Shown in pieces: positions 1,753-58,520 of a stretch of 64,000 bases of DNA. Location of the stretch: the NCBI GenBank assembly GCA_964016885.1, contig OZ024744.1:84134001-84198000 (forward strand), written 5' to 3'. The first letter of the stretch is position 1. Each line of letters opens with the position of its first letter. Origin of the DNA: Eledone cirrhosa (lineage: Eukaryota). Made by a program: the position numbers and the translations under genes. The notes beneath the pieces are model-generated. The model did not search any database. It was not told where the DNA came from and saw only the letters and a program-made list of their open reading frames with translations.

Positions 1753-1775
1753 ATTATTATTATTATTATTATTAA

Positions 1776-1965
1776 GGGCGGTGGATTGGCAGTATCGGTA
1801 GAGGGTCGGACGCCATGCTTTCCAGCATAGTTACGTCCCTTTACCATCTGAGTTCAAATCCCGCCGAGGTTGACTTTGCCTTTCATCCTTACGTGGTCGA
1901 TAAAATAAAGTACCAGTAATGCACTGGTAATTGCTGGCCTTGTGCCTAAAGTAGAAACAATTATT
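1776..1965 (+). mobile_element. tRNA-derived SINE (family S1, octopus-type), full length
   Basis: A box TGGCAGTATCGG, B box GAGTTCAAATCC, body GCCTTTCATCCTTACG..GTCGATAAAATAAAGTACCAG and (ATT)n tail. About 16 related copies occur in the window. Confidence 0.9.
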
Positions 1966-1966
1966 A

Positions 1967-2016
<50 letters not shown>

Positions 2017-2237
2017 TGGACGCACATGTGTGAAGACAATACAATTCTGCAGGGGAAAAGGTTCGTAACTTTAAGCGTTTTTAAAGTTTTTTGTATTTTC
2101 TTGTCGTTAACGAAAATTAAGGTACACATCTTAATTTAAAGAGAGGGAAACCTCTCAATATTCGGGCTTTAAGCCCGAATATTCAGATTTATTTAAAAAA
2201 ACTTCTAAAAAAATCGCTTCCCCACTCCCCCAAAAAT

Positions 2238-4206
2238 ATGGAAATTTTCGACCTTGAAACGGTAAACAACGATCAGGTCAAAGGTTTAAAGGCAGCCACT
2301 GTATATTTCACCACGACTACGATGGCTACAGACATGCCTGTCATCCACTCTACTGAATGTGAAGGCAAAACTCAAAAGCTACCATCACAACCTTCTGTGA
2401 TAGCAGCAGTATCATCTGAAAACGACATCACCACCACCACCGCCACCACCACCACCACAACAACAACAACTCAAAGCAATAACGACAATAACACCGACAG
2501 CTTCAATGTAAACATGGATGGCGGTGGCAACAGCATCAACAAACAAAACAACAACAACAACAAAACAACACCAACAACAAAAGCAACAGAAGCACCACCA
2601 TTGCTGCAGCAGCAGCAAAAACAAAGCGCTTATTGAATATTGATATTGATATTAGCGATAAAGACGAACAGTTGGACCAAGCGTGGAGGCTAATTAAACG
2701 GGAGAAGTCCTGGGCAAACCTGACCATCCCGGACGGGGCAATAGCGGCCATGCAAAGGAGGACGGTGTACTTTCCATGCATTTCGGTGCAGACACGAAAA
2801 GTGGAACTTGCCAGCCAAGCAGAGGTCGAGGCTGCTTTGGAGTACATCGGAAGTAAAATAGAGTATAAAGCAAGAGCCAAACAGTTCGGTACCATCTCGG
2901 TACTGTTCAAAACCGAAGCCCTTGCTATTAAGCACTCGGTGACCACCTGCAGAACGGAACGCATTATCATGCATCCGTCCTACATGGGTAAAAGGACAGT
3001 AAAGGTCCGCATTACCAGCATCCCACCAGGAATGAACATATGGTGGCTGCTGGGATGCGTAATCGAGGAGGGGACAGACACTACCCTCCTGGATATCAAA
3101 AGGACAGAGAGAGAGAAGACTGGTCCGAAATGGATTTGGAGATTCTCCTCCAAATGAAACCGGAGGACATAAACAACATCCCGGGTTTTGCCCGCCTGCA
3201 GGACGGGACAACAATCCAACTAATCGTTGACGGAAGAAGGCCACGCTGCTTCGTCTGCAGGGAAGCAACGCATCTTTAAGCCTTCTGTCCTCAGCGCAAA
3301 AGGGCTGGAGGTCGCAAACCTCCTTTGTTGCCAACGAAGTGTCAGCACGGAAAGCTGCACCACCACTACCACCAAAAACAACACCAACAAAGAGACGGAC
3401 AACAACATCAAAAACAGCCGGATCACCACCAACACCAAAACCAATCCAAGGGGAAAACGAGGAAAGCTCTCCCACTCCCCCCACCCAATTATACACATAG
3501 ACAAAACAATAAACGCACACATAGACACAGAGACACCCACAGCCGCAGACCTTTTGTCTTCCAGCAGCGAAGATGATGAAAAACCCAAAAGTGCAGAAAG
3601 AAGCAGAGAAAACTCACCAAAAAAATCCCCAACAAAACACAAAAACATACACAACAAAAGATACAGACACCACTAACGCAAACACTTCCCCAATAACATC
3701 AGCACTAACAGCAACATCGACACCACCCCACAATCCCCGAACGCAAACAACCTAAACAAACACAAGTACAAATAAACACACAAATACCTGAAATTGCAGA
3801 CACCACACCTACAACAAACACAGACATACCCGAAAAAACACCACCAAAACAATCACCACCACAGTCACCAAAACGAAAACAAATAAAACCACACCAACAA
3901 AATGTTAAAAACTTCGTGCTTGTCAGAAGGGCCAACGATAAACTGATGGCCCTCTTAGCACGAAGAGAGGACATTCAAACAGAGGGGGAGATTTTTGAAA
4001 TGAGCATATTTTGCGTGCCAAAGGATTTGCTTCTGGTCCGAATGTCACTCAATTCCTTCAAAGAAATTCGAGAGAGCTTTCCTCAAGACGTGGGAACCCC
4101 GAATGTGAAACCCACATCGAGACTTTTAAAGGCGTTCCCAAAAGAAACCCCACCAACCATGAAGGTCGAACCATCCGACCTTCACAAGACTCCGAGAGGT
4201 AAGTAA
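2238..4206 (+). pseudogene. Tx1-A ORF1 (gag-like, CCHC zinc knuckle), frameshifted
   Basis: Fragmented ORFs 2238..2636, 2633..3157, 3040..3279 and 3916..4206. VDGRRPRCFVCREATHL*AFC is a CX2CX4HX4C knuckle with an in-frame stop. T/N-rich low-complexity tracts are present. Confidence 0.75.
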
Positions 4207-4235
4207 ACCTTCCCTCTCTTTTTAATCTTGCCAGC

Positions 4236-7200
4236 ATGGCCATATTAAGAGTAGGAAGTTTAAATGTTCGCGGCCTGGTGTCACCCTGGAAGCAGGGTCA
4301 CCTTCTCACGACCTCAGGTCGCTGGAAATGGATGTGATTGCCGTCAGCGAGACCAGAATTTCCGACACGCGCGCACTAGCCCCATTTTCGACGACTATCA
4401 GATCTTCGCATCTGTTAGCAGGCTGGGAATGGGGGTGGGGTGGCAGTGCTGTTTAGGAAAGGACTGGATCTCGAGGTAAGGTCGATCTTCCGGGACCCGG
4501 ACGGTAAGTTGGTGGTCTTGGATGTGAGCAGTAGCGAAGGTGGTGCCTTTAGACTGCTGGCCGTCTACGCCCCTACAGGCGCCGACGACCGGACTTCTTT
4601 AGGCGCCTGGAGACCTTTCTGGGCACGTCTCCCCCTTTACTGTTAGCGGGAGACTGGAATGGCATCTTAGACGCACGCTTGGATTGTGCAAAAGCCCCAA
4701 GCACCTACTCAGCCAGTTCCTTCTGTCTGACAGGTATCGACTAGATTTCTTCAATGTGCCAGTATGGAGCTGGACCAACCGAATGGGGTCATCTAGATCG
4801 TATATAGACAGGATCTTCATTAGGAAAATAGATAGAAATAGTGTAGGCTGCCCACTTTTTAAAACGGTCGCCTATTCAGATCAAAAATTTGTGATCTGTA
4901 CGGTCGACCTAGATAAAACGCGTAGGTTAGGACCGGGTTACTGGAAGCTGAACATGTCATTTCCGGCACGTAAGGCTTACAGGGACCGAGTCAACAATTT
5001 AGTTAACCAAAAGTTGACAGGGGGGGGGGGGTCATCAATAACAGATTGTGGGGGGCTCTCAAAAGAGAGATTAGAGTAACTTCGATAGAGTTCAGCAAAG
5101 TACTAGCGTTAGAGAAAAATAGAAAGGAGGGGGAGCTGGTAGATAAGTTAGACGAGGCTAATTCCAGTGGCATTGAAACTGACGTGCAAGAGGCAAGAAT
5201 GGCATTAGACCATTTCTTCAATGCGAAACAGGAAGGTTTACATTGTCAAAGCTAAGGAGCGTGCCCTGAGAAACGAGGGAACCTAAGCTGTTCGATGTGC
5301 CCGGGTGGGTGGGCGCAGCGTGGTAATAAAACCACAATTCGGTCTTTGGTGAACCGAGACGGACACGAGATAAGCGATTCCAAGCGGATGTGTGAAGCCT
5401 TTCGCCAGCACTTTGCTCGGTTGTTCGGGGAGAGTGGCGAGTCAGAGAGAGTAGCGGACTTCAGTCCCTACCTTGACTGCTTGCCGCGCATCTTGACGCT
5501 CGACGCTGACTGCTGCGAAAGATCAATTACGAAAGACCAATTCAGGACGCTCTTGTCGGCTGCATGAGACGCAAGTCACCCGGTTTGGATGGGCTGCCCT
5601 ACGAGCTTTACGTAAATATGCCAGACTTGTTCTCCGATCTCTACGAAGCACTCTACTGCAACTGGCAGCAGAATGGGAGTATTCCCAGTTCCGTGAACAG
5701 GGGAGTGGTGACGTTGATAAGGAAAGACGAGAACAAGAGGGATACATTAGACAACTTCAAGCCCATAACTCTGCTCAACCCAGATTTTAACATTTTGGCC
5801 AAGGTGCTAGCAAAGTGATTGGCGCTTGTCGTAGAGGATTTGGTTGGGGAGGCGCAAACTTGCGCAATACCAGCCAGGTCCATATACGACAATCTCCACC
5901 TCATGCGATACATCATAGAGAGGGTAGAGTGTAAACCTGGCTTCGGTGGGGCACTGATCAATTTAGATCAATCGAAAGCATTCGATAGGTTCGACCATCT
6001 ATATTTGGAGTTTGTCCTCAAAGCAGCTGGCTTCACCCTGTCTTCAGAAGCTGGATCGCTGCAATGCACAGCGGCACACGCTCGGTGGTCAAGGTTAATG
6101 GCCACCTCTTGGAACCATTTCGGCTCTCCTGATCGGTCCGTCAAGGGAGCCCTCTCTCTTCCCTTCTGTACGTATTGACTCTCGAGCCTTTACTGCGGAA
6201 GCTGGAGCTGTTGCAGGGCATCCCACTCGAACCGGGACGTGGAAAGGCGGTGTCGGCTTATGCGGACGACATCACCGTGATGGTGTCGAACACCTCAGAA
6301 ATCGAGGTGGTCGGCACCTTATTGAAGGAATATGAAAGGTTGACAGGAGCCAAACTTAACCCGGAAAAGTCGGTGGTCTTGCAGCTCGTAACCTGGAGAG
6401 GGAAGCCCATGCCGTCCAACAGCGTTGTGGGGCGCTGGACGGACAGACCGATTAAGTTGCTCGGGGTTCGGTTCGGACCAGACCTCCAGGTGGAAAAGAA
6501 TTGGGACGAGGTAACGAACAGAGTAGCCAGTCTCACCCAAAAATGGGCTGGGAGGAAGCTATCACTGAAAGGTCGCGCGGAGGTGGCAAATGCGTACATC
6601 GCGTCCGTCATCTACTACCGCCTGACCGTCGTGCCTTGCCCCCGTCCGCGCCTCATCAAGTTGGAATGGCTCCGCATCATATTCTTGTGGAGGGGACAAG
6701 TTCCGTTGGTGAGGTGGTCCATCTGCTGCCAGCACCCTCTACGAGGAGGGCTGGGCATGCCGTGGCTAATGATGCGCAGACATGCGTTGAGGCTGCGACA
6801 TCTCCAGATATTCTGCCTCAACGGTTAACAGGTGTGGTCGCCGTTTATCAGATGGGCCTTTCCGCAGCTCATTTCTTTGACTGAGCTGCAGTTCTGTGTC
6901 AAGAAGAGACCGAGACTGGGTGACTGGCACCTGGAATGTTGCCAGGTCCTCACTGCCCTCTACCAAGAGGGCAATGCGATCAGTGGAACTTCCACTCTCG
7001 AGTTCTATAGAGGATTAGTGGTGGGCAATTGCGATGACTCACTCGGAGAAGCTTTGCGCCTCGACGAAGTCGAACTGACCAGTCTGTACCGGAGTACTTT
7101 TGAGCCGGGGACGATGGACAATTTCCAGAAATCCCTCGCTTGGCAGTGCTACCGGGGGGCACTGCCGGTTCGGGATAAACTCTACAGGCACGGGAGTGCT

Positions 7201-7641
7201 GCCAGACGGACCTGCCCAAGATGCGCACAGAACGACGAAACCGTTCTGCACGCACTTGTCCAATGTCCGTGCATTACTGACTTGTGGAGTTATGTCGAAC
7301 AGCGACTGTCGCGTATGGAACGAACCCGGCTATCGGCCGAGTCCATAGTGAAGATCGATCCACCGCCTTCCTTAGGTCAGGAAGAGCAGGAAATTTTCCT
7401 CTGCCTGGTGGCAGTTGCGAAAGAGGTTATATGGTGGACCAGGTTGAAAGGACTAAAGACAGACACTTTTCTCTTCGGCCAATCCCTCATCAACTTCTTC
7501 AAGTTTCTCCTGGAAAGGAAGGTGAGGGTGGAGAGAGAAGTGCTGCACCCCCCACCCACCCCCAGTACATCTGCTAAAAGGTGGATGAATGTGGCAAGAA
7601 TGGTTCGTGTGAACGGGCCTACTCTGACCATGCACTTATAG
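4236..7641 (+). pseudogene. Tx1-A ORF2 (APE endonuclease + RT + C-terminal Zn finger), frameshifted
   Basis: GSLNVRG, VYAP, GDWNG, SYIDR, YSDQK (APE); PGLDGLP, FKPITLLN, LDQSKAFD, AYADD (RT); CPRC..ETVLHALVQC. Confidence 0.9.
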
Positions 7642-7902
7642 GCTAGCTAACTTGAGGAGAGGGGTGCTCTCCCTGGGTGCCCTAGAAGCGCAAGGAGGTT
7701 CAGGATGTGTGGGGTACCTGAGTCACCCTATTTGAGGAATTTATTTTATCAAATTTATGCATAGTTTATTTTATATTTTTTATATCTTCATTGTTAAATT
7801 AGTCTTGCCATTGTACACTTTTACTCGACCTTATTGTAAACCCCCACTGTCCCTGTCTTTGTATTGTCCCCACCACGTCGACCCTTGTGGCTAATAAATG
7901 AA

Positions 7903-7933
<31 letters not shown>

Positions 7934-8240
7934 CAATTGCATTTATCTTGCTTTATGTTCATACGAGTTATCACCAAGTCACAACCAGTGACCTCAAGAG
8001 ACAACAAGGTCTGCCATATTCAAAAAAGAACATACATACACACACATGCATCTTTAGGTGTTGTACTTATATTGACAGAATCTTCCTTAGTATATGGGCA
8101 GTTCCCATTAGTACTATCTTTTGTATTTCTCCTATACGCGGATTTCCTGGGATTTGCGATAAGTAATCATTAGATCCCTTAGGTATGATTCCTAGAGCGC
8201 CTACAACCACTGGTATTGTTTTAGTTCTCAATTTCCACAT
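7934..8240 (-). mobile_element. R4/Dong-like element 3' end (5'-truncated)
   Basis: 8240..8067 translates MWKLRTKTIPVVVGALGIIPKG..IQKIVLMGTAHILRKILSI*, a typical RLE C-terminus. It is followed by a short 3' UTR and has (TAA)n on both sides. Confidence 0.85.
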
Positions 8241-8262
8241 TATTATTATTATTGTTATTATT

Positions 8263-11200
8263 GAATGCTATGGTTGACGGAGGCTCGGCTCTGTAAGGTA
8301 TTGTAAATTTTGACCGCTATAACAGTTGTAAATTGTTTAAAATTTTAACCAAATTGTAGACAAAAACAACCTCCTCCTCGTGAGATGGGTCTTTCTGCCC
8401 GTTATTTGGCCCTTCGGGGTTAAATAACCGCTTATTGGGGTTTTATGCCCAATATTTATTTTAAACAAAAAAAAACATAACTACGAAAAAGAATTTTCAT
8501 AGGTCACTCCCACTCATTCCGTCTTCTTCTTGCTCAATCGTCACTACAGCAGAGAGAAGATTGTCTCTCTCCCTCCCTTCTCTAAATCTGTCTCTCTCAA
8601 GCGACGCCAGTAAAGAAAAATCACGTGCAAAGGGGGCAACATTTCTTCATGACGACGACGACAACGACGAAAAAGGTGTGCGGGAAATACGAAAACCCAT
8701 TTCATTCGTCTGACGTCATGAATAATAGCAGTAGCAGCCGTAATAACAGCAGCAGCAGCAACAGTGACAAGGAAAACAACAGTAGCAGCCGCAACAGCAT
8801 CAGCAGCAGCATAAACAACAACAGCATTAGCAGCAACAGCAACAACAGCAGCAGCAGCAACAACAACAACAACCACAGCAACAACGGCGGCGGCAGTAGT
8901 CGTAGTACCTGCAGCAACAACAAAAGTAACAGCAGCTCTGACGACAACAACAACAACAACAAGAAAGAAAAATCAATCTCGTTTGCAGGTATCGCAAAAA
9001 ACCTGGAAACCATCCTTATAACAAATGAGGAATTACAGGAAGCGAAGAAGATGGTGACGAAAACCGGACACCGAGCAATCTGCAAGGCAGCTGAAAAATT
9101 TTTCGAAACACAACAGCACTGTACGGTCACGTACCGTACAGTAAGCACAAAATCCCGTAGGGTTGAAAGAGCCACAGAGGCTCAAATACAAAAAACCTTA
9201 GGGTCTGTGTGGCAGCGGAAAACGCATATCACCCGAGGCAAGAAATATGCCACCGTAGACGTGCTTTTTGCCACACCCCAGGAGGCAAAGGCTCAATCCT
9301 TAGTGACACTAAGGAGCGAGGAAATGGTGTTGGTGCCCTCCTACTGCTGGCAAAAAATTGTGAGGGTCAAACTGACCCACGTCCGCCCCCGGGATGGCCC
9401 CTTCTTGGCTGGCCGCGTCTGTCTTCGTCGGAATTGAGGACAAAACAAATGTTCTGCAAGTACAGAATAAAGTAAGAGAAGATTGGGTCGGCACCTCCAT
9501 TGAGATGTTAACCAAACCAACCAGGAGTGTACCGTAGCTATCCCGGGTGTGATAGACTTCGATAACGGCACTCCTTCCGAAACCGGTTCCACTGCTACCA
9601 TCAACAGGACAGGCGGTAAGCAGGAAGGATAGGTCCGTGGCACCCATACCCACCCTAGGAAATCAAGAACAGCAGCAGCAGTGGAAGTATTAACAACAAC
9701 AACAGTAATACCAAATGCAGCTGCAACAGAGACTCCAGTGCAAACATCACCAACAACAACAAGTGAAAGAGTGGAGCTGGTACCCCTCCCCGACCTCACA
9801 GAATCAGACATGGGGTGTGAGGTGGGAGAGGGTTGGCAAAAGGTCGTAAGAAGGCACAAACGCAGAAGCAGCGCATCGTCGCCTTCGAAAAGGGAGGAAA
9901 GAAATGAAAAAAGGGTAAAGGCTACTGCAAAGATACTCACAGCAGCAACACCACCTTCAACACCACCACCACAAGCACCAACATCGCAAATACAACAACA
10001 AAACACACACACCCAGCAACAACGACAAGAAAATAGCTGAACCACACCCCACCCCCAGAAAAACAAATGCACGGCAATAAATACACACAACAAGAAACTA
10101 ATGACTTACATAATTGAACACACAGACATTTCACAGCACGACTACATAATACCAGCACCAATCAAAGCGCCAACGAACATAAGACTGGTAAAAATAGCAC
10201 AGAAACAATACACAAACATTAAAACGAAATTCCCCAACGCAGTTGGTGATTTCAGAGACCTAGGAGGGACTCTCAACCGGAGAGTATATTCGGACATACT
10301 CACAGAAGAGCCGACGACCAGCCGAAGGGACGATTCAACGGTCCCTTCACCAGACGATCAAGTGAAAAGGGATGGAGAAACCATCGTTCCTCTACGAAAA
10401 GTACGGTCAGTGGTCTTTCCCATCTTTTCCACTCCATTTTAAACAGGACCTCACTCAGAATAGGCAGCATAAATGCGCGTGGCTTGGGGTCGTCATGGAA
10501 GCAGGGTCACCTGCTCAACGACCTCAGGTCACTAAACATAGTGACGGCGGCTATGATGTGCACGCATCTCCCAGCCGTCCTGGATCCGGGGGGAAGGAGT
10601 TGCTGTGCTTTTTTGGAGAGGTTTGGATCTCGCCATACGGGCCATCTTCCTCGACCCAGGGAGTAAGTTGGTGGTGCTGGACGTGACCAGCGGAGACGGG
10701 AAAGCTTTCAGGCTAGTGGGTTCTATGCCCCGACAGGAGCAGGGTCGCCTGATTTCTTCCGGCGTCTGGAGAACTTTCTTGGAACGTCCCGCTCTTTAGT
10801 GTTAGTGGGCGACTGGAACGGGATCTTATATGCACGCTGGGACTGTGTGGGATTAGCGGATATGGGAGGAGGGTGCAAGAGCCTCACCAACCTGCTCAGG
10901 CGTTTTGAACTGTCTGACAGGTACCGATTGGATTTACCGAATGTGCCAATGTGGACTTGGACAAATCGCATAGGGTCATCACGATCATATCTAGATAGAG
11001 TATTTTGTAGAGAAATAGATAGGTCTAGCATAGGCTGTCTACAATTCAAGATAGTCAGCTACACGGACCACAAATTCGTGATCTGTGTACTTGACATAGA
11101 TAGGCTTCATAGACGAGGACCCGGCTACTGTAAGCTAAGCGCGTCCTTACCAGCGCGCAAGGCCTACAGAGACCGGATTAGCGAACTAGTTAAGCGGGCG

Positions 11201-13663
11201 TTGACGGGGGGACATCGTCAACAACAAGTGGTGGTTTGCTCTGAAAAGAGCAATTAGAATAGAGTCCATTAGGTTTAGTAAGGCTTTAGCAATAGAGAAA
11301 AATAGAGCAGAGGGAGAATTAGTTAGACAATTAGACGAGGCGCTTAGCAAAGGCATCGCGACCGACGTGCTTGCGGCGAAATTGGCCCTTGACCAATTCT
11401 TCAATGCAAAACACGAAGGCTGCGTTGTCAGAGCTAGGGTGCGTGCTCTCAGACACGAGGGGACGAAAGCCGTTCAATGGGCCCGAGTGGCGGAGGCGCA
11501 TCGTGGCTACAAATGATCCGAACAAGGGGGATAACATAGATAATTTTAGGCCCATAACTCTGCTAAACACAGAGTTCAAGATGTTGGCCAAGGTGTTAGC
11601 AAAGAGGTTGCGCTTGTCGTTGGTGGTCTGGTGGGAGAGGCGCAGACATGCGCCATTCCCGACAGATCCATCCACGACAACCTCCACCTCATGCGATACA
11701 TCGTAGAGAGGGTAGCTAGGGAACCTGGCACGGGTGGGTCCTTGTTCAATTTAGATCAGTCGAAAGCTTTCGATAGGGCCGACCATCGTTACCTAGCGGC
11801 AGTCCTGAGGGCGGCTGGCTTTGGCACTGTCTTCAGAGGCTGGATCGCTGCCATGCACAGCGACATCTGCTCTGTGGTGAGAGTGAACGGTCACCTTTCG
11901 GAACCGTTCAACATCATGCGCTCAGTCCGCCAAGGATGTCCCCTCTCGTCCCTCTTGTACGTATTGACTCTCGAGCCATTACTGCACAAACTGGAGACGT
12001 TGAGGGGGTTCCTGCGCGAACTAGGATGCGGAAGATCCGTGTCAGCATATGCGGACGATGTCACCGTAATGGTGTCGAACGCCAAACACATCGAGGCGAT
12101 CGGCACTACACTAAGAGAATACGAAGCAGCGACAGGAGCAATGCTCAACCAGGAAAAGTCAGTGGGCCTGCAGCTCGGCACCCGGAGAGGCAGGTCCATG
12201 CCGTCCAAAAGCGTCGTCGGGCGCAGGACGGACGGACCAGTTAAATTGCCATGGGTCTGGTTCGGTTCGGACCTCCAGACGGACAAAAACTGGGACGAGG
12301 TGACGAGCAGGGTGGCTTCTCTCACCCAGAAATGGGCCGAGAGGAAGCTATCCCTGAAAGGTCGAGCAGAGGTGGCTAACGCGTATATCGCGTCCGTCAT
12401 CTACTACCGCCTGACCGTCGTACCTTGTCCTAAGCCCCGCCTGACTGCGCTGGAGCGTCTGCTCTTTCGCTTTTTGTGGAAGGGACGCGCTCCGATGATC
12501 AGGCGGTCCATCTGCTGTAAACACCCGCTACGTGGAGGACTGGGAATGTCATGGCTGATGATGCGCAGACACGCGCTCAGGCTACGACATCTCCACCTCT
12601 TCCTCGACGGTGATCAGGTGTGGTCGCCGTTTGCTAGACACGTCTTTCCCCAACTCGTCTCCGTGACGGAGCTGCAGTCCTGGGTCAAGCGAAGACCGAG
12701 AGGGAGCGCTTAGAGACTGGAATGTCTTCAGGCGCTCACAGCCCTCGACCAATCGGGCAATGTGATCGGTGGAAACTCCACCTTGGCGTTCTATAGAGGA
12801 TTAGTGGAGGGGAAGAGCGACGACGTATTTGGGAAAACTCTAGGCATCGACGAAAATCAACTAGCCAATCTCTTCGGAAGAACTTTCGGGCCAGGACCTA
12901 TGGACAACTTCCAGAAATCCCTGGCCTGGCAGTGCTACCGAGGAGCTTTGCCAGTTCGGGATAAACTCTACAGGCATGGAGGTGCCGTCAGCCGGGCATG
13001 TCCGAGATGCGCGCAGGGCGACGAAACCGTCCTGCACGCACTCGTCCAGTGTCCGAGCATTGCTGACTTGTGGGTTTATGTCGAACACCTGCTGTCGCGT
13101 GTAGTACGGATCCAGCTATCAGCTGAGTCCATCATGAGGATTGCCCCACCCTCTTCCTTTAGCCGGGAAGGGCAGGCAGTTTTTATCTGTCTGGTGGCCA
13201 TGGCGAAAGAGATAGTATGGTGGACACGTTTGAAATGGCTGAAGACGAGCACTTACCTCTTCGGTGATGCCCTGATTAACTTTTTCAAATTTCATTTGAA
13301 AAGGAAAATCAGGGTAGAAAGGGAAGTGCTCTCTTCCCAGCATTTTGTTGAAAGATGGGTGAGAGAGGCAAGAATGGCCCGAGTGAATGGGCCTACTCTG
13401 AGTATGTGTCTGTAAATTAAAGGTGGAAAATTGGGAGAGGGCACTTGCCCTGGTGGTCAGGGTGACTGTGGCTTTTTAATGGGCTTTCTCCACCAATGTC
13501 CCTCGGAAGTCTTCCCCTATTGGGGAATTTTTTCATTGTTCCATTATTACATCCTCTGTTTCTTTTTTTTACACGCATAAATGCCCATTTGTACCGCCCT
13601 GTATTGTCCTGTACTGTCCTTAATGTCTACTTTATGTAAACCCTTGTGGTTAATAAAGAAATC
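8263..13663 (+). mobile_element. Tx1-like retrotransposon, family B copy 1 (internal deletions)
   Basis: N/S-rich ORF1 remnant (8625..10442) and ORF2 remnants with GDWNG, YTDHK, LDQSKAFD, VRQGCPLS, AYADD and CPRC..HALVQC. (ATT)n at both ends. Highly similar to 30769..36463. Confidence 0.9.
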
Positions 13664-13884
13664 ATTATTATTATTATTATTTTTAAAAGATCGGAGTTCA
13701 TATTCAGTTGATTCTCAGGTTTATTTAAAACTCCATTATACATATTTCGCTGAGGACTATCACCTATGACAACTTGAGCTCTAGACGGCAGGTCATTGAG
13801 TTCTTCTTCGTTCTGCTTCACAACCGACCGACCATAATGTGGTCCCCATATCCCTGTTCTGTTATCCACATACCCCCCCCCCCC

Positions 13885-13924
<40 letters not shown>

Positions 13925-16828: not shown

Positions 16829-17015
16829 AAGGGCGGTGTATTGGCAGTATCGGTAGAGGGTCGGACGCCATGCTTTCCAGCATAGTTACGTCCCTTTACG
16901 ATCTGAGTTCAAATCCCGCCGAGGTTGACTTTGCCTTTCATCCTTACAGGATCGATAAAATAAAGTACCAGTAATGCACTGGGTAATTGCTGGCCTTGTA
17001 CCTAAAGTAGAAACA
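16829..17015 (+). mobile_element. SINE S1 with 15-bp TSD
   Basis: Full-length copy with TSD ATTATTTACAGGCAT at 16812..16826 and 17016..17030. Confidence 0.92.
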
Positions 17016-18603: not shown

Positions 18604-19070
18604 TAGTCTACGACTTCAGTTATACCATTTACGTGGTTTTGTCTTTGCGTGCAATTATTCTCCTCGCTCCACATATGACGTATTATCTTCGTTTTTTTTC
18701 GTTCATTGCCAGGGAACGTCTCTATGAACCATCTAAGAGAATATTAGTCTACGACCTCTTTTATACCATAAACGTGGTTCTGTATTTGCGTGTAATTGTT
18801 TTTCACCGCTCCAAATAATTGTTTCTACGTTAGGCACAAGGCCAGCAATTACTGGTACTTTATCACCGCTCCAAATAATGACGTATTATCTTCGTTTTTT
18901 CCGTTCATTGCCAGAGAACGTCTCTATGAACCACCTAATAGAATATTAGTCTACGACTTTTTATACCATAAACGTGGTTTTGATCTGCGTGTAATTGTTT
19001 TTCACCGCTCCTATTAATGACGTATTATCTTCGTTTTTTCCCGTTCTTTGCCAGGGAATATTTCCACGAA
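18604..19070. repeat. Three tandem ~140-bp units, the second interrupted by a SINE tail
   Basis: The unit TTAGTCTACGAC..TATACCAT..CGTGGTT..GACGTATTATCTTCGTTTTTT..GAACC repeats at ~18604, ~18744 and ~18946. Confidence 0.8.
18820..18862 (-). mobile_element. 5'-truncated SINE S1 (3' tail only) with 17-bp TSD
   Basis: TCACCGCTCCAAATAAT is duplicated at 18803..18819 and 18863..18879. Confidence 0.85.
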
Positions 19071-20667: not shown

Positions 20668-20846
20668 ATTCTTTCTACTTTTAGGCACAAGGCCAGCAAT
20701 TACCCAGTGCATTACAGGTACTTTATTTTATCGACCCCGTAAGGATGAAAGGCAAAGTTAACCTCGGCTGGATTTGAACTCAGAATGGTAACGGCCGTAA
20801 CTCTATGCGTCAAAGCATGGCGTCCGACCCTCTACCGATACTGCCA
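20668..20846 (-). mobile_element. SINE S1
   Basis: Reverse-complement match to 1776..1965. It lies directly downstream of the Tx1-C (ATT)n tail. Confidence 0.9.
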
Positions 20847-20876
20847 TAATAATATCGAATGTTAGAATAATAATAA

Positions 20877-23379
20877 TTTCTTTATTGGTTACAAGGGCCA
20901 AAACATAAATGACAATACAAAAGAACAAAGATACTGGGAATTTACATAAAACGTGAGTAAAAAAAAAAGGAAAAACAGAAAATAAATGATAAATAATAAC
21001 AACAGAATTTCCTAATAAGGGGCGGAAGCATCTCCCAGATATAGATTGGGAACTCCACAGATCCGAGATCACCCTAATCGCCAAGAACACCCTAGCAGAA
21101 ACTCTCCAGCCTACAGATGTATGCTCAGAGTAGGCACATTTATATGGAACATCCTCGTTATATTCACCCAACATTTAACAAATGGAACAGCACTACCCTC
21201 TTCACGTTCCTTTCCAAGTGGATCTTGAAAACGTTGATGAGGGCTTGGCCGCCGAAAAGGAGATTGTATATATTTAGCCCTTTCTGTTGCGTCCACCACA
21301 CAGCCCCTGCTTATCTTTATCTGCGAACCTAATGAAAAACCTATCTAAATTAGATCTAGATGACACTATACGATTGCTCCATGTCCACATTGGCGTATAC
21401 GAGAAATCTTGTCGATACGTATCAGAGAGTCAGAATTATCTGATCAGGTTCTTGTGGAGGCACATGACCTAGTGGTAAGGGTGTAGGACTTATGATCATA
21501 ATGTTGTGGGCTCGTTTCCTGGGCTGGGTTGCGTTTTGTGTTCTTGAGCAAAACACTTCATTTCATTCTGGTCCAGTATACTCTGCTAGGGGTTTAGCCC
21601 TGCGATTGTTTGGCGTCCTGTCCAGTCAGAGAGCCTTGTCTTCTCGGTCGCTTCACACCATGAAACTGAGTTAAGCACCGGCCTAACGAGCCTTCTGTCT
21701 TGAGACAGACTTTAGACTTTGACTTAGGTTCTTGAAGCTTTTTCACACCCACCGCCTCTATCGGCAACCTCCTTACAGCTCCAACATGCATCTAAGATGC
21801 CGTTCCAATCCCCCGTTAACAGTAAAGGGTGAGACGTTCCAAGAAAGGCTTCCAGACGCCTGAAGAAATCTTGCTTTCACTTCGAGAAGAAAAAGGCACC
21901 GGTGACTGAAGAATCTGTCTCAGATATAGGTGAGAGTGTGTTTGTATTTATGTGAATGTTTATGCGTGTGCTTGGGTTTAGAAGAGAAAGAAAAAGAGGG
22001 AGAGGGAGAGCTTTGTTGGAAGCCACCCTGGGTGTTTTTCTCGTTATCTGTTGTTGGTGATTGTAGTGGGACTTCTGCTATGTTTTGGGTGTTGTTGCTG
22101 TTATTTCTGATGTAGGTACTGCTGCTCCGCTTGTTGACTTTGCTGTTGATGCTGCTACTACCGAGGTTTATGTTACTGTTGTTGTTGTTCACTATTTCTG
22201 TTGTCGTTGTTGTGGTTTTTAGAGTCCTGGTGTTGACAGCAATGAGGCCCTTTGTTTCTCTGCTTTTTCTTGTGTGCAGAAAGCTCTCGGGTGGCGAATT
22301 TGTCCACACAGATGGCAGCGAGGGCTTCTGCGCTCAACCATAACCTGTAGGTCTACTCCTTCCGGAAGGTGAATATGGTCTGAGATCTTGTGTACATCAT
22401 CTGGTTTGGTGTGGATTAATACTCCAACACTGATCCCAGACCAGTTTTCTCGTTCCACCTCCAGGTGGGTGTTGCATTCTTCCCGGACGATGCAGGCCAA
22501 TGTCCACGAGATATTCCCTTCTGATGGAATCCCTGAAATCTTGACCCTTAAGTCCTTCTTTCTAAACAAGATAGGTACAGCACATACTTATCACTCCGAT
22601 AGCTTCAATCTTAAAGAGCATACTGCTTGGCTCTCGCAATATGCTGAATATCAGGCATTATCTCTAGCAGCGTTCTTTCAATGTCTATCTGATTTCCTAG
22701 CTCCGACTCGTGTTCGTGTTTGTGCACATGAGTTTGTAAGTTACAGTCTTTTGGGTGTTTCTGCCAACACCTGTGGGAAGGGAGCTACGTCAGCCCATAA
22801 GTATACTACCTTTATTAGTTTGGTCACGTGGGCCAAGCATTTGTCTGTCTCTGTGATATCTCTGACAAACAGTTCGGTTCTTCTGGTAACCGTTGCTGCA
22901 AATGTAATGTTGTAATCGTTGTTGTTGCAGTGGTGGTGGTGTTGATGCTGGAAGCGGTGGTGACATTGTTCGTGTTAGTGTTGCTGTTGATTTATGATGT
23001 GTTTGTTTTATTTAGTTGTTCTTGTAGATGTGGTTTTAAAGATTTTAATAGCGGGAAGTTCGCTTCATAATTTCCCCGTGCAGAGTTGTTGTTGTTCCTG
23101 CTACTGTCGTCTTTAAACTTAGGCTGTTCAATCTTGCGGACAGCCCGCTGTTCAATTCAGCGGGTGAAATTTTGTTTTTTGCAATTTTATTTTGAAAAGA
23201 AATTGAGGAGCGGTTTTATTAAAAAACAAACACAGGTTTAATCCCTAAGGGCTAAATGGAGAGAAAAGTTAAACAGCTTGCGGAGATACTGGTTAGTTTA
23301 CCTATAAAACAAAATACGTTGGATAACAACAAACTTACGAGAGCGGTATGTAACAGGTGTCGAAAAACGTACGAACGAA
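20877..23379 (-). mobile_element. Tx1-like retrotransposon, family C, heavily deleted
   Basis: ORF1 remnant with VMVERRSPRCHLCGQIRHPRAFC knuckle, APE fragments at 21310..21880, and an ORF2 C-terminus at ~21120..21300. The 3' end is CCCTTGTAACCAATAAAGAAATT(ATT)n and the 5' end abuts (ATT)n. Confidence 0.8.
21455..21725 (+). mobile_element. tRNA-derived V-domain-like SINE (family S2) nested in Tx1-C
   Basis: tRNA-like head, TGTGTTCTTGAGCAAAACACTT, CCCTGCGAT..TGGCGTCCTGTCCAG and a GACTTT tail. Flanked by AGGTTCTTG direct repeats. A second copy lies at 58997..59290. Confidence 0.75.
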
Positions 23380-29062: not shown

Positions 29063-29479
29063 CAGTGGTAACCTACTTTAAACTACATTAACCTACCTCC
29101 TTTTCACCACCACCACCATCACCAGCCCAGCCCTACTACAACCAGATTGTATACAATAACCACAATAACCATCATCACCACCACCAACAATAGAACAGCA
29201 CCGAACATCAGTAACATCACAAGCACCATCGACACCAAGCATCACCAATATTATTGCCACCATATCCCTACCAAAATTATGAACACCTTGTCTATATTCG
29301 ACGTTGTTGTCAATGAAATCTTTATCTAAACCAGTAAAAATCATGATTATAATAACTATAATGAGCAATATGATTATGATCATAGTGATGGTCAACATCA
29401 TCATAACTATCATTATGATCATAGTAATGAATGGCAGATCATCATATTTCCCTTTTTTCATCACCCTTTTCATTGAACA

Positions 29480-29803
29480 TTGGCAGTATCGGTAGAGGGT
29501 CGGACGCCATGCTTTGCAGCATAATTACGTCCCTTTACGATCTGAGTTCAAATCCCGCCGAGGTTGACTTTGCCTTTCATCCTTACGGGGTCGATAAAAT
29601 AAAGTACCAGTAATGCACTGGGATAATTGCTGGCCTTGTGCCTAAAGTAGAAACAATTATCAAAAGGTTACGTTCCTTTACGGTCTGAGTTCAAATCCCA
29701 CCGAGGTTAACTTTGCCTCTCATCCTTACGGGGTTGATAAAATAAAGTACCAGTAATGCACTGGGATAAGTGCTGGCCTTGTGCCGAAAGTGGAAACAAC
29801 TAT
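29480..29803 (+). mobile_element. Tandem SINE S1 pair (second copy 5'-truncated)
   Basis: Copies at 29480..29660 and 29667..29803. Confidence 0.9.
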
Positions 29804-30696: not shown

Positions 30697-30732
30697 CAAT
30701 TGTTTCTACTTTAGGCACAAGGCCAGAAATTA
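30697..30732 (-). mobile_element. SINE S1 3' tail fragment between (ATT)n tracts
   Basis: Reverse complement of CTGGCCTTGTGCCTAAAGTAGAAACAATT. Confidence 0.8.
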
Positions 30733-30733
30733 C

Positions 30734-30768
<35 letters not shown>

Positions 30769-30770
<2 letters not shown>

Positions 30771-33700
30771 TTTCTTTATTAACCACAAGGGTTTACATAA
30801 AGTAGACATTAAGGACAGTGCAGGACAATGCAGGACGGTACAAATGGGCATTTCTGCGTGTAAAAAACAAAAACAGAGGATGTAACAAAAATAGCAATGA
30901 AAATAACAATGAAAAATTCCCCAATAGGGGGGGAGACTTCGGAGGGACATTTGTGGAGAAAGCCCAGTAAAAAGCCACAATGACCCTGAACACCAAGGCA
31001 AGTGCCCTCTCCCAGTTTTCCACCTTTAATTTACAGATATATACTCAGAGTAGGCCCATTCACTCGGGCCATTCTTGCTTCTCTCACCCATCTTTCAACA
31101 AAATGCTGGGAAGAGAGCACTACCCTCTCTACCCTGATTTTCCTTTTCAAAGGAAATTTGAAAAAGTTAATCAGGGCATCACCGAAGAGGTAAGTGCTCG
31201 TCTTCAGCCCTTTCAAACGTGTCCACCATACTATCTCTTTCGCCATGGCCACCAGACAGATAAAAACTGCCTGCCCTTCGCGGCTAAAGGAAGAGGGCGG
31301 GGCAATCCTCACGATGGACTCAGATGATAGCCGGATCCGTCCTACACGCGACAGCAGGTTTTCGACATAAACCCACAAGTCAAAAATGTTCGGTCACTGG
31401 ACGAGTGCGTGCAGGACGGTTTCGTCGCCCTGCGCGCATCTTGGACATGCCCGGCTGACGGCACCTCCATGCCTGTAGAGTTTATCCCGAACTGGCAAGG
31501 CTCCTCGGTAGCACTGCCAGGCCAGAGATTTCTGGAAGTTGTCCATAGGCCCTGGCCCGAAAGTTCTTCCGAAGAGATTGGCTAGTTGATTTTCGTCGAC
31601 GCCTAGAGTTTCCCCAAGTACGTCGTCGCTCTTCCCCTCCACTAATCCTATATAGAAAGCCGAGGTGGAGTTTCCACCGATCACATTGCCCGATTGGTCG
31701 AGGGCTGTGAGCGCCTGAAGACATTCCAGTCTCCAGGCGCTCCCTCTCGGTTTTCGCTTGACCCAGGACTGCAGCTCCGTCAAGGAAACGAGCTAGGGAA
31801 ATAGGTGTCTAGCAAACGGCGACCACACCTGATCACCGTCGAGGAAGAGGTGGAGATGTCGTAGACTGAGCGTGTGTCTGCGCATCATCAGCCACGGCAT
31901 GCCCAGCCGTCCATGTAGCGGGTGTTGATAGCAGATGGACCGCCTGACCATCGGAACGCGTCCCTTCCACAAAAAGCGAAAGAGCAAACGCTCCAGCGCA
32001 GTCAGGCGGGGCTTAGGACAAGGTACGACGGTCAGGCGGTAGCAGATGACAGACGCGATGTACGAGTTAGCCACTTCCGCTCGACCTTTCAGGGATAGCT
32101 TCCTCTCGGCCAATTTCTGGGTGAGAGAAGCCACCCTGCTCTTCACCTCGTCCCAGTTTTTGTCCGTCTGGAGGTCCGGACCGAACCAGACCCCTAGCAA
32201 TTTAACCGGTCCGTCCGTCCAGCTTCCGACGACGTTGTTGGACGGCATGGACCTGCCTCTCCAGGTGCCGAGCTGCAGGCCCACTGACGTTTCCTGGTTG
32301 ATCATTGCTCCTGTCACCGCTTCGTATTCTCTTAGTGGAGTGCCGATCGCCTCGAAGTGTTTGGCGTTCGACACCACTACGGTGACATCGTCCGCATATG
32401 CTGACACGGATCTTCCGCATCCTAGTTTGCGCGGGACGCCCCTCAACTTCTCCAGTTTGTGCAGCAATGGCTCGTGAGTCAATACGTACAAGAGGGACGA
32501 GAGGGGACATCCTTGGCGAACCGAGCACATGATGTTGAACGGTTCCGAAAGGTGACCGTTCACTCTCACCACAGAGCAGATGTCGCTGTGCATGGCAGCG
32601 ATCCAGCCTCTGAAGACGGGCCCAAAGCCAGCCGCCCTCAGGACTGCCGCTAGGTCGACCCTATCGAAAGCTTTCGACTGATCTAAATTGATCAAGGACC
32701 CACCCGTGCCAGGTTCCTTAGCTACCCTCTTTACGATGTATCGCATGAGGTGGAGGTTGTCGTGGGTGGATCTGTCGGGAATGGCGCATGGCTGCGCCTC
32801 TCCCATCAGACCACCAACGACAAGCGCCAACCTCTTTGCTAGCACCTTGGTCAAAATCTTGAACTCTGTGTTTAGCAGAGTTATGGGCCTAAAATTATCT
32901 ATGTTATCCCCCTTGTTCGGATCCTTTCTCAGCAGCGCCAGAGCTCCTCGGCTCACAGAGCTGGGAATTCTCCCGTTATGTTGCCAGTTGCAGTAAACGT
33001 CCGCCAAGAGGCCTCCGAACAAGTCTGACATCGGTACGTAAAGTTCATAAGGCAGACCATTCAAACCAGACGATTTACCCCTCGTGCAGACAGTCATTGC
33101 CTCCCATACTTCAGCGGCTGTTATCGGCTTTTCGCAACACTCCGCCTCAGTGGCCGAGAGCCGCGGCAGTCCGTCGAGGTAGACACTAAAGTCCATCCCT
33201 CGACCCGGCCCACCACTGCTCCCGAACAGCTGAGCGAAGTGTCGCTGAAAAGCTTCACACATTTGTCCGGGATCGAGTAGCATGCGCCCATCGTGGTCCA
33301 CCAAAGACCGGATCGTGGCTTTGTTGCCACGACGCGCCTCCGCCACTCGGGCCCATTGAACGGCTTTCGTCCCCTCGTGTCTGAGAGCACGCACCCTAGC
33401 TCTGACAACGCAGCCTTCGTGCTTTGCATTGAAGAATTGGTCAAGGGCCAATTTCGCCGCAAGCACGTCGGTCGCGATGCCTTTGCTAAGCACCTCGTCT
33501 AATTTTCTAACTAGTTCTCCCTCTGCTCTATTTTTCTCTATTGCTAAAGCCTTACTAAACCTAACGGATTCTATTCTAATCGCTCGTTTCAGAACAAACC
33601 ACCACTTGTTGTTGACGATGGCCCTCGTCAACGCCCGCTTAACTAGTTCGCTAATCCGGTCTCTGTAGGCTTTGCGCGCTGGTAAGGACGCGTTTAGCTT

Positions 33701-35814
33701 CCAGTAGCCGGGTCCTCGTCTATGAAGCCTATCTAAGTCAAGCACACAGATCACGAATTTGTGGTCCGTGCAGCTGACTATCTTGAATTGTGGACAGCCT
33801 ATGCTAGACCTATCTATTTCCCTACAAAATACTCTATCTAGATATGATCTGGATGACCCAATGCGATTTGTCCAAGTCCACATTGGCACATTCGGGAAAT
33901 CCAATCGGTACCTGTCAGACAGTTCAAAACGCTGAGCAGGTTGGTGAGACTCTTGCACCCTCCACCCCTATCCGCTAATCCCACACAGTCCCAGCGTGCA
34001 TCTAAGATCCCGTTCCAGTCGCCCACTAACACTAAAGAGCGGGACGTTCCAAGAAAGGTCTCCAGACGCCGGATAAAATCAGGCCGCCCTGCTCCTGTCG
34101 GGGCATAGACAACCACTAGCCTGAAAACTTGCCCGTCTCTGCTGGTCACGTCCAGCACCATCAACTTACCCTCTGCGTCCAGGAAGATGGCCCGTATGGC
34201 GAGATCCAAACCTCTCCGAAAAAGCACAGCAACTCCTGCCCCCGATCCAGGACGGCTGGGAGATACGTACACATCGTAACCGCCGAAGATCGGTGCGAAG
34301 GCCCGTGCTTCGGAGATTCTGGTCCCGCTGATGGCCACTACATCTATGTTTAGTGACCTGAGGTCGTTGAGCAGGTGACCCTGCTTCCATGACGACCCCA
34401 AGCCACGCGCATTTATGCTGCCTATTCTGAGTGAGGTCATGTTTAAAATGGAGTGGAAAAGATGGGAAAGACCACTTACCGTACTTTTCGTAGAGGAACG
34501 ATGGTTTATCCATCCCTTTTCACTTGATCGTCTGGTGAAGGGACCGTTGAATCGTCCCTTCGGCTGGTCGTCGGCTCTTCTATGAGCATGTCCGAATATA
34601 CTCTCCGGTTGGGAGTCCCTCCTAGGTCTCTGAAATCACCAACTGCGTTGGGGAATTTCGTTTTAATGTTTGTGTATTGTTTCTGTGCTATTTTTACCAG
34701 TCTTATGTTCGTTGGCGTTTTGATTGGTGCTGGTATTATGTGGTCGTGCTGTGAAATGTCTGTGTGTTCAATCATGTAAGTCATTAGTTTCTTGTTGTGT
34801 GTATTTATTGCCGTGCATTTGTTTTTCTGGGGGTGGGGTGTGGTTCTGCTATTTTCTTGTCATTGTTGCTGGGTGTGTGTATTTTGTTGTTGTGTTTGAG
34901 ATGTTGGTGCTTGTGGTGCTGGTGTTGAAGGTGTTGTTGTTGTTGGCGGTGGGGTTGTCGCCGGTGGTGATGGTGGTGCTTGTGTGGGTGGTGATGGTGT
35001 TGGTGGTGTTGCTGCTGTGAGTCTCTTTGCAGTAGCTTTTACCCTTTTTTCATTTCTTTCCTCCCTTTTCGAAGGCGACGATGCGCTCCTTCTGCGTTTG
35101 TGTCTTCTTACGACCTTTTGCCATCCCTCTCCCACCTCACACTCCATGTCTGATTCTGTGAGGTCGGGGAGGGATACCAGCTCCACTCTTTCACTTGTTG
35201 TTGGTGGTGATGTTTGCAGTGGAGTCTCGGTTGCAGCTGCATTTGGTATTACTGTTGTTGTTGTTAATACTTCCACTGCTGCTGCTGTTCTTGATTTCCG
35301 TGGCGTGGGTATGGGTGTCACGGACCTATCGTTCCTGATTGCCGCTTGTCCTGTTGCTGGTAGCCGTGGAGCCGGTTTCGGAAGGAGGGGAGTTTTCTCC
35401 TTTCTCAGGAGTGTGGCAAAAAGCACGTCCACGGTGGCATATTTCTTGCCTCAGGTGATATGCGTTTACGCTGCCACACAGACCCTAAGGCTTTTTGTAT
35501 TTGAGCCTCTGTGGCTCTTTCAACCCTACGGGATTTTGTGCTTACTGTACGGTACGTGACCGTACAGTGCTGTTGTATTTCGAAAAATGTTTCGGCTGCC
35601 TTGCAGATTGCTCGGTGTCCGGTTTTCGTCACCATCTTCTTTGCTTCCTGTAATTCCTCATTTGTTATAAGGATGGTTTCCAGGTTCTTTACGATACCTG
35701 CAAACGAGATTGGTTTTTCTTTTTTGTTGTTGTTGTTTTCGTCAGAGCTGCTGTTACTTTTGTTGTTGCTGCAGGTACTACGACTACTGCCGCCGCCTCT
35801 GTTGCTGTGGTTGT

Positions 35815-35849
<35 letters not shown>

Positions 35850-36463
35850 CTGCTGCTGTTGTTGTTTATGCTGCTGATGATGCTGTTGCGGCTGCTACTG
35901 TTGTTTTCCTTGTCACTGTTGCTGCTGCTGCTGTTATTACGGTTGCTACTGCTATTATTCATGACGTCAGACGAATGAAATGGCTTTCCGTATTTACCGC
36001 ACATATTTTTCGTCGTTGTCGTCGTCGTGGAGAAATGTTCCACGGTTTGCACGTGCTCTTGGAAACTATCAGAAACTATATTTTTCTTTTTCTTTACTGG
36101 CGTCGCTTGCGAAAGAGAAGGGAGGAAGATAGACACATTTAGAGAAGGGAGGGAGAGAGGCAATCTTCTCTCTGATGTAGTGACGATTGAGGAAGAAGAA
36201 GACGGAATGAGGGGGAGTGACTTGTGAAAATTATTTTTTGTAGCCATGTTTTTGGGGGGGGTTTAAAATGAATATTGGGCACAAAACCCCAATAAGCGGT
36301 TATTTAACCCCGAAGAGCCAAATAACGGGCAGAAAGACCCCTCTCACGAGGAGGAGGGTGTTTTATCTACAATTTGGTTCAAGTTTTAAACAATTTACAA
36401 TTGTTATAGCGGTTAAAAATTACTATACCTTACAGAGCCGAGCCTCCGTCAACCATGGCATTC
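30769..36463 (-). mobile_element. Tx1-like retrotransposon, family B copy 2 (most complete ORF2)
   Basis: (ATT)n at both ends, with the same 5' and 3' termini as 8263..13663. Confidence 0.92.
31031..34440 (-). pseudogene. Tx1-B ORF2 (APE-RT-Zn finger), frameshifted
   Basis: ORFs 33838..34440 (GSINARG, VYAP, GDWNG), 31793..33958 (TDHK, FRPITLLN, DQSKAFD, VRQGCPLS, AYADD), 31394..31783 and 31031..31378. Confidence 0.92.
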
Positions 36464-40110: not shown

Positions 40111-40299
40111 TGTTTCTAATTTTGGCACAAGGCCAGCAATTACTCCAGTGCATTACTGGTACTTTATTTTATTGACCCCCGTAAGGATGAAAGGCAAAGC
40201 TAACCTCGGCGGGATTTGAACTCAGAACGTAAAGGGCCATAACACCATGCTGCAAAGCATGGTATCTGACGCTCTATCGATACTGCCAATCAACCACCC
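40111..40299 (-). mobile_element. SINE S1 with diverged 16-bp TSD
   Basis: TTCATATTGTAATAAT at 40095..40110 and TTCATCTTGCAATAAT at 40300..40315. Confidence 0.88.
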
Positions 40300-42016: not shown

Positions 42017-42319
42017 CATATAGATTGAGTTAGAAACTGAAAATAGTCTTTTACAATTAAATAGCTCAAAGAAGGGAATCTTTCCGAGCCGTATAATATA
42101 ATTGAATATATGAGAGGGATGGACTCAGATACAAGTATACATGTGTTCCAATTGCAAATGACTAACTTAGCTAGGTTGAAAAAATTCTGATTTAAAACAA
42201 TATGGTTTGCCTGTCTCGATATAAAGTGATAAATCAATAAAAATAACAAACCTATATCGGGCAACAGTCTTTGATACCCGGACAGTTCTAAATCTGTTTC
42301 GTAAACATTATTAAGTAAA

Positions 42320-42375
42320 ATGAAGTACCAGTAATACACTGGGTAATTGCTGGCCTTGTGCCTAACGTAGAAACA
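42320..42375 (+). mobile_element. 5'-truncated SINE S1 with 13-bp TSD
   Basis: ATTATTAAGTAAA at 42307..42319 and 42376..42388. Confidence 0.85.
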
Positions 42376-48879: not shown

Positions 48880-49265
48880 TCCAGCATAGTTACGTCCCTT
48901 TACGATCTGAGTTCAAATCCAGCATAGTTACGTCCCTTTACGATCTGAGTTCAAATCCCGCCGAGGTTGACTTTGCCTTTCATCCCTACGGGGTCGATAA
49001 AACAAAGTACCAGTAATGCACTGGGTAATTGCTGGCCTTGTGCCTAACGTAGAAACAATTATATATATATATATATATAGGCGGTGGATTGGCAGTATCG
49101 GTAGAGGGTCGGACGCCATGCTTTCCAGCATAGTTACGTCCCTTTACGATCTGAGTTCAAATCCCGCCGAGGTTGACTTTGCCTTTCATCCTTACGGGGT
49201 CGATAAAATAAAGTACCAGTAATACACTGGGTATTTGCTGGCCTTGTGCCTAACGTAGAAACACT
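48880..49265 (+). mobile_element. Cluster of SINE S1 copies (partial + partial + full)
   Basis: Copies at 48880..48920, 48920..49040 and 49079..49265. Confidence 0.9.
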
Positions 49266-58230: not shown

Positions 58231-58339
58231 TTTATTAAAAAAAAAACATTCATCAACTTAATCTTCATCTACACATTCAATACCGTATTTAAAAAAAGAT
58301 ATGCATTATTGAGAAAGTTAAAGGCGTTATAGTATATAT

Positions 58340-58520
58340 GGCTTAGCAGTATTTGTTATGGTTCTTTACGTTCTGAGTTAAAATCCCGCCGTAGTTAACT
58401 TTCCCTTTCAACTTTCTGAGGTTGATAAAATAAGTACCATCAAATACTGGAGTCGATTTAATCAACTTTCGCTTCCCCTCCTTCCAAATTACTACCTTTG
58501 TGCCTTAAGTAGATATCATT
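58340..58520 (+). mobile_element. Old, long-form SINE S1
   Basis: Diverged match that retains the GTCGATTTAATCAACT..CCCCTC segment. Confidence 0.75.

Follow-up and report, generated by a model that had tools for sequence, protein, structure and literature searches.

A short 3' terminal motif common to an abundant SINE and ATT-inserting L1-group LINEs in Eledone cirrhosa: a candidate partnership

A 3' tail common to a short interspersed element (SINE) and its partner long interspersed element (LINE) is the rule for partners of the L2, CR1, RTE and Nimb clades; the eel pair UnaSINE1/UnaL2 and the bivalve V-, CORE- and Meta-SINEs with their CR1, L2 and Nimb partners are stringent pairs of this kind, with a common 3' stem-loop tail (PMC4824008; PMC11481361; PMC4758252; these and the other papers are cited for the parts accessible to us). 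Tails of L1-group LINEs are rare among SINEs, being included three times among the 58 SINE/LINE pairs of a 2012 survey, always in plants or algae: maize ZmSINE2 and ZmSINE3 pair with LINE1-1_ZM of the monocot L1 lineage, and Chlamydomonas SINEX-3_CR pairs with L1-1_CR (PMC3472496; PMC3747384). Here we describe a 64,000-nt stretch of the octopod Eledone cirrhosa (contig OZ024744.1, positions 84,134,001 to 84,198,000; the window), in which an abundant SINE, S1, ends in the same short motif as three related LINE families (A, B/B2 and C), which are represented by four copies. As in the maize and Chlamydomonas pairs, an L1-group LINE and a SINE have a common 3' end; while those pairs share 45–80 nt and have poly(A) ends, the present one is found in an animal, shares about 22 nt, and combines ATT ends with ATT targeting. 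The eel and bivalve pairs involve other LINE clades and have longer tails, in bivalves 35–61 bp at 72–95% identity (PMC11481361).

The crocodilian SINEU elements were linked to Tx1-Mar by target preference and age, and that study found no LINE similar to the 3' half of SINEU-1 (PMC4494074). The proposal for S1 resembles that for SINEU, a SINE moved by a Tx1-clade LINE, the LINEs of S1 being likely members of that clade; SINEU has snRNA heads, a Mariner target and no tail found in common, whereas S1 has a shared tail and a microsatellite target. The microsatellite-specific Tx1 families Kibi and Koshi of fish insert into (TC)n and (TTC)n (PMC4494074). LINEs A, B and C also insert in simple repeats, in this case (ATT)n, and no SINE partner is mentioned for Kibi and Koshi in the accessible part of the paper. 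L1-Tx1 families occur in Octopus vulgaris, according to a table in PMC13282606, and SINEs make up 11.6% of its genome (PMC13282606). No octopus pair is named in the accessible part of a 2013 review that covers 58 SINE/LINE pairs (0 occurrences of 'octopus'). No report naming the LINE partner of octopus SINEs was found in the literature covered, outside which lay Repbase Reports and subscription journals, and none of an octopus SINE/Tx1 shared-tail pairing, for which Repbase Reports, Dfam and SINEBase lay outside coverage. New here is a candidate case in which a SINE and L1/Tx1-group LINEs of an animal would be partners by way of a very short common tail.

The pattern CCTTGT-N8/11-GAAA was matched 16 times in the window, compared to 0.67 ± 0.84 expected from 100 shuffles, and all 16 matches were located at element 3' ends, 12 in S1 and four in the L1-group LINEs (three families). 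All five element ends quoted in the original prediction were found in place; motif positions are 1938 and 63491 for S1, 7883 for LINE A, 13642 for B, and, on the minus strand, 20896 for C and 30790 for B2. The majority S1 end, built from 11 ends after exclusion of one copy with an extra base, agreed with B and B2 at 15 of 22 positions, with C at 14 of 22, and with A at 16 when one gap was allowed. A gapless identity of 21/28 had been claimed between SINE and LINE B; the count is right, but six of the 21 identities belong to the ATT tail, without which 15/22 remain. Agreement of at least 15/22 with the S1 end was observed at only four of 122,634 non-SINE 22-mers, two of the four being the B and B2 ends, and of the 112 ATTATT starts that lie outside SINEs, none but those of B and B2 reached 15 without gaps (next best, 10). 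When the last 30 nt of the ends were aligned locally and scored against dinucleotide shuffles, all 12 SINE × LINE pairs gave p values of 0.001–0.011, while 18 pairs of the SINE with six other element ends of the window, placed by eye, gave 0.03–1.0. The shared S1/LINE end is well above chance. It extends over only about 22 nt: in the 80 nt upstream, identities are at background level (0–4 per 10-nt block).

Compared with one another, the LINE 3' untranslated regions are 92, 76 and 72% identical in their last 25 alignment columns (A/B, A/C and B/C, respectively) and 49–57% identical upstream, in agreement with the earlier claim that A and C keep the motif although their 3' ends otherwise diverge. 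Part of this conservation, however, is due to AATAAA, which each of the four LINE ends carries inside the motif and which all SINE ends lack. The short and long subfamilies of S1 alike retain CCTTGTG and AGAAA and have lost AATAAA, and the long-subfamily end (AGAAATC, within 63308–63848) agrees with B and B2 over the last 7 nt. The last 25 nt of B2 are identical to those of B. The LINE C end was also compared with public sequence data (runs X1, X4, X5 and X23; four runs, three organisms): G (sense) at 20890 was found in 154 of 191 X23 reads and in 67, 56 and 25 contigs of X1, X4 and X5, respectively, the matches being short and possibly from mixed families. This G restores a motif letter and also the closing C-G pair of the candidate hairpin described below, the second mismatch (20889) not being among the rows listed; we take it to speak for the motif and not for pairing. 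Scans for the motif in viral (3 stretches) and metagenome contigs (20 stretches) yielded chance matches only, none of them similar to the window or its second open reading frame (ORF2), and no related loci were found in viral or prokaryote collections.

Table 1. Positions of S1 copies, LINEs and associated features in the window.
Feature	Position	Strand	Remarks
S1 full-length copy, short subfamily	1777..1959	+	
S1 3' terminal motif	1938..1959	+	possible GGC-CUUGU-GCC hairpin at 1936-1946
(ATT)n run	1960..2016	+	S1 tail/target, also insertion site of LINE A
LINE A, L1-group, Tx1-like, decayed	2017..7905	+	endonuclease (EN), reverse transcriptase (RT), zf-RVT
LINE A terminal motif with AATAAA	7883..7905	+	ATT tail 7906-7934
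3' end of Dong/R4-like element, (TAA)n tail	7935..8240	-	no match to S1 end
LINE B, L1-group, Tx1-like, internal deletion in ORF2	8263..13663	+	
LINE B terminal motif	13642..13663	+	predicted AACC-CUUGU-GGUU hairpin; ATT tail 13664-13681
S1 copy	16831..17015	+	exact 15-bp target duplication, starts ATTATT
S1 3' fragment, 5'-truncated	18820..18863	-	17-bp duplication starting ATTATT
S1 copy	20670..20846	-	directly downstream of LINE C tail
LINE C, L1-group, older, deleted	20875..23377	-	terminal motif 20875-20896; interrupted by second SINE family
Second SINE family	21453-21730 (+), 58992-59290 (-)		different tail, with GACTT-type repeats at its end; LINE C is interrupted by one copy
S1 copies, head-to-tail pair	29479..29798	+	
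S1 3'-only fragment	30701..30733	-	inside (ATT)n tail of LINE B2
LINE B2, L1-group, second copy of family B	30769..36463	-	
S1 copy	40111..40298	-	17-bp duplication (2 mismatches), starts ATTATT
S1, 5'-truncated	42316..42375	+	exact 13-bp duplication, starts ATTATT
S1 tandem copies	48880..49263	+	ATTAT(AT)n context
S1 copy, old, long subfamily	58330..58520	+	motif decayed
Three S1 copies in tandem, including long subfamily	63308..63848	+	

The insertion sites provide an independent target signature. All four LINE copies lie between two stretches of (ATT)n as read in the LINE sense, in the same orientation, and show the target-sequence preference known from the Tx1 clade. Among 13 S1 insertions, five have unique duplications of 13–17 bp, every one of which begins with ATTATT exactly at the SINE end, and four lie inside microsatellites (two in (ATT)n, two in ATTAT(AT)n). 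ATTATT occurs at 0.15–0.18% of positions as background; as the upstream copy of a duplication is pure target, the preference is real. Its source may be the choice made by the endonuclease or the pairing of RNA with DNA. S1 sites look less strict than LINE sites, mostly comprising two ATT units. In most S1 copies the motif is indeed followed by ATT, as originally predicted, but this 'tail' consists merely of the first letters of the target duplication. Several 3'-only S1 fragments, truncated at the 5' side with the 3' end kept, are marks of target-primed reverse transcription, and in run X4 the flank 5' of the SINE is (ATT)n (agreement 0.47). Duplications of L1-clade LINEs measure 7–18 bp (mode 13–15) and those of RTE 7–15 bp (mode 10–12) (PMC6007223); with the ATTATT overlap counted, as is usual, the 13–17 bp of S1 would fall in the L1-clade range and mostly above RTE. 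The common ATTATT site and orientation back the link between S1 and the LINEs.

LINEs A, B, B2 and C are L1-group elements on the basis of their sequence. ORF2 contains the Pfam domains PF03372 (endonuclease), PF00078 (RT) and PF13966 (zf-RVT), and its nearest solved structure is human L1 ORF2p (E 1e-35, compared to 1e-15 for R2), with no L2, CR1 or RTE comparator among the PDB matches. Among named relatives, those nearest to ORF2 are proteins of Argonauta hians (69% and 54%). In a quick tree of 76 rows, none of them a labelled Tx1 reference (row P0002 was dropped as too short), A, B and B2 grouped with the Argonauta proteins in an octopod clade (support 99), itself nested in a 23-row clade that includes a cuttlefish protein (support 100). 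Protein searches and the ESM Atlas returned no Tx1-labelled relative of ORF2. A CCHC zinc knuckle in ORF1 is a feature of the Tx1 clade; this motif is intact in LINE C (at ~22317) and interrupted by a stop in LINE A (at ~3247); B and B2, both decayed, yielded no knuckle. Microsatellite targeting, together with a knuckle seen in two of the four copies, would fit the Tx1 clade, to which the LINEs likely belong. Self-BLAST showed that the internal deletions of the two family B copies differ, with ~390 nt missing from ORF2 in B and ~290 nt from ORF1 in B2.

About 15 copies or pieces of S1, a short, non-coding, dispersed high-copy repeat, were found in the 64-kb window. In the copy at 1777–1959, 1787–1798 would be A-box-like and 1850–1861 B-box-like by the consensus. 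S1 may well be tRNA-derived; ARAGORN found no tRNA in S1, and there was no Rfam match either. Between 25,943 and 157,171 contig records of the public runs and 1.8% of RAD reads matched the stretch, nearly all of them on the SINE. Both the short form and the long form with its extra internal segment were common there, and head-to-tail tandems appeared in three of the four runs (17 contigs in X1, 591 reads from 35 starts in X23, seven contigs in X4, none in X5). S1 has probably already been named as a SINE family: Ohshima and Okada reportedly described the octopus tRNA-derived SINEs OK, OR1 and OR2 in 1994, and S1, an abundant octopus SINE with an A/B-box-like head, could belong to one of these families or be related to them. 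An assignment as MetaSINE was dropped, as the 66-bp Meta domain was not seen in a by-eye comparison with BivaMeta-SINE1 and BivaMD-SINE1. The short subfamily, which lacks ~35 nt found in the long one (63452–63485, a segment with its own palindrome), has a 7-bp hairpin immediately 5' of the tail (1890–1930 and other copies).

Taken as a whole, the data make it likely that S1 is mobilised in trans by the ORF2 protein of an ATT-inserting cephalopod L1-group lineage. S1 would have acquired its terminal 22 nt from such a LINE by a template switch. The ORF2 endonuclease would nick ATT repeats, and the AUUAUU end of the S1 RNA would pair with the nicked strand and prime reverse transcription, the RT recognising a short 3' signal, possibly a hairpin of 3–4 bp that has CUUGU as its loop and AGAAA next to it on the 3' side. 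If transcribed by RNA polymerase III, the SINE could have dropped the AATAAA that the LINEs would need for 3'-end formation by RNA polymerase II and kept the rest. Window-level ages are compatible with rough overlap: 10 short S1 copies differ by 1–10% from their majority sequence, and B and B2 by ~5–6% in substitutions. The earlier proposal that S1 parasitises ATT-specific Tx1 elements is partly supported: a partnership is the best reading, for which same-orientation ATTATT sites and stem covariation speak, while the LINEs themselves were placed at the level of the L1 group and the motif is a putative cis signal for the RT. If true, the partnership would explain the pile-up of SINEs and LINEs in ATT microsatellites seen here. 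Far more tentative, and in our view somewhat doubtful, is the wider picture of a cephalopod-wide ATT-specific Tx1 lineage that drives a dominant octopus SINE expansion through stringent CUUGU-loop and AGAAA recognition, which would make the lineage the first L1-group LINE of animals for which a SINE with a common tail could be demonstrated. Whether the L1 group started out with stringent or with relaxed RNA recognition is a question on which an animal case has bearing and which so short a motif makes testable; stringent CUUGU/AGAAA recognition, if true, would argue for the persistence of stringency in animal L1/Tx1 elements, with the 22 nt as a test handle.

The candidate stems are GGC-CUUGU-GCC in the SINE, AACC-CUUGU-GGUU in B, GACC-CUUGU-GGCU in A and GGCC-CUUGU-AACC in C. 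Differences between SINE and LINE B beside CCTTGTG are matched by upstream changes; 75% of 64 alignment cells pair, and three of the four pairs vary on both sides. The covariation score of 0.306 was reached by none of 500 shuffles (slid controls, 0–0.14), a score that is inflated because the sequences are related. Ohshima described a fixed loop, a fixed 3' flank and a variable stem for the monocot L1/SINE pair (PMC3472496; PMC3747384), and the candidate hairpin of S1 and the LINEs has the same layout. Pair probability is high only in B/B2 and a few S1 copies (~0.87 for LINE B in short context), and the predicted hairpin, energetically weak, may serve as a lead.

Several observations weigh against the partnership. 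The match is short (22 nt, 64–73%), and the window contains no intact LINE of the A/B/C lineage. The hairpin was picked after the sequences had been viewed, from four related lineages; RNAalifold returned no consensus structure for a 16-row alignment, pair probabilities ranged from 0 to 0.9 across S1 copies and were 0 for LINE A, and pairs are broken in LINE A (one) and LINE C (two of four). At the insertion sites, four of the 13 S1 insertions have no convincing duplication, and long (ATT)n runs hold only two of the 13 compared to all four LINEs. Counted without the ATTATT overlap, the S1 duplications measure 7–11 bp and fit RTE equally well, and the 5' flank consensus is merely T-rich in X1 and X23. 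Nor is an ATT tail specific: (ATT)n likewise terminates BivaCORE-SINE2, a SINE partnered by L2. Finally, the RTE-like end at 59.9 kb weakly matches S1 (p = 0.057, 0.136 and 0.029).

The weakness of the hairpin and the decayed motifs in some S1 copies (58496, 63685 and 63827) would be expected if the lineage gave S1 its tail and mobilises it with relaxed recognition, the AUU end alone being important, as poly(A) is for mammalian L1. The 22-nt motif would then be an inherited residue or, in the LINEs, an RNA polymerase II 3'-processing element, and the AATAAA within the LINE motif explains part of its conservation. We consider this unlikely, though deserving of serious attention. Both S1 subfamilies retain CCTTGTG and AGAAA and lose only AATAAA, which favours a role for the motif, and the stem covariation points in the same direction.

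A partner from the L2, CR1 or RTE clades outside the window, with the likeness explained by convergence on ATT targets or by a tail passed between clades, appears improbable. SINE partners mostly belong to L2, CR1, RTE and Nimb (PMC4824008; PMC11481361), RTE, CR1 and Dong elements are abundant in octopus (PMC13282606), and to these are added the known L2-partner SINE with its ATT tail and the weak match at 59.9 kb, the best rival end. This RTE-like end, however, terminates out of register and without ATT, while three separate L1-group families match S1 in register and the other five window ends do not. Among the 24 loose ends listed (1631 more exist), none represents foreign sequence adjoining the 5' side of the SINE tail, which is a weak argument against such a partner.

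A third explanation, which we regard as very improbable, is that the LINEs target S1 tails, or that S1 is a remnant of the target, so that the motif is co-located and not shared. LINE A sits within an S1 copy's ATT tail, and S1 pieces come after the tails of B2 and C; moreover, the Tx1 clade is known to include elements with other transposons as targets (PMC4494074). Nevertheless, the LINE motif is family-specific, B and B2 being identical over the last 25 nt and unlike S1, an identity that largely refutes co-location. The LINE motif also includes AATAAA and sits 5' of the LINEs' own tails, and S1 is directly upstream of only one of the four LINEs; the clustering of S1 and LINEs is explained by their common ATT target. 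That the partner is a Dong/R4-like element, another user of ATT/TAA repeats whose pieces share repeats with the neighbouring S1 and LINE A, can practically be dismissed, as its tail, read in sense direction, is (TAA)n, on the opposite strand to S1, and its end is unlike the S1 end (p = 0.29–0.54).

'Dong/R4' is the label that we presume for the R2-group pieces, for which Pfam gave no match and the best PDB match was R2 (E 0.004). These Dong-like elements occupy the opposite strand of the same ATT repeats compared to S1 and the LINEs. Positions 1–14000 form a nested ATT/TAA cluster of a Dong-like element (-), S1 (+), LINE A (+), a Dong-like 3' end (-) and LINE B (+), in which one microsatellite was used by two LINE groups on opposite strands.

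Other elements were also observed in the window. At 59581–59960 (+) lies the 3' piece of an APE-RT LINE, RTE-like, whose last 47 residues share 83–85% identity with a Pogonophryne albipinna (fish) protein of 937 aa and with an unnamed 900-aa protein; horizontal transfer of this element is possible, judging from this protein similarity. The second SINE family is, to judge by a motif, presumably CORE-like. Two long overlapping open reading frames of 540 and 307 aa at 52011–54478 (+), blank in Pfam, we take to be a Penelope-like element, which is flanked by inverted-repeat pieces in common with 24556–24875. Short palindromic elements of several families, resembling miniature inverted-repeat transposable elements (MITEs), lie between (TA)n runs at 17613–17909, 40679–41021/41753–42004, 46196–46330 and 50256–50376/49454–49573.

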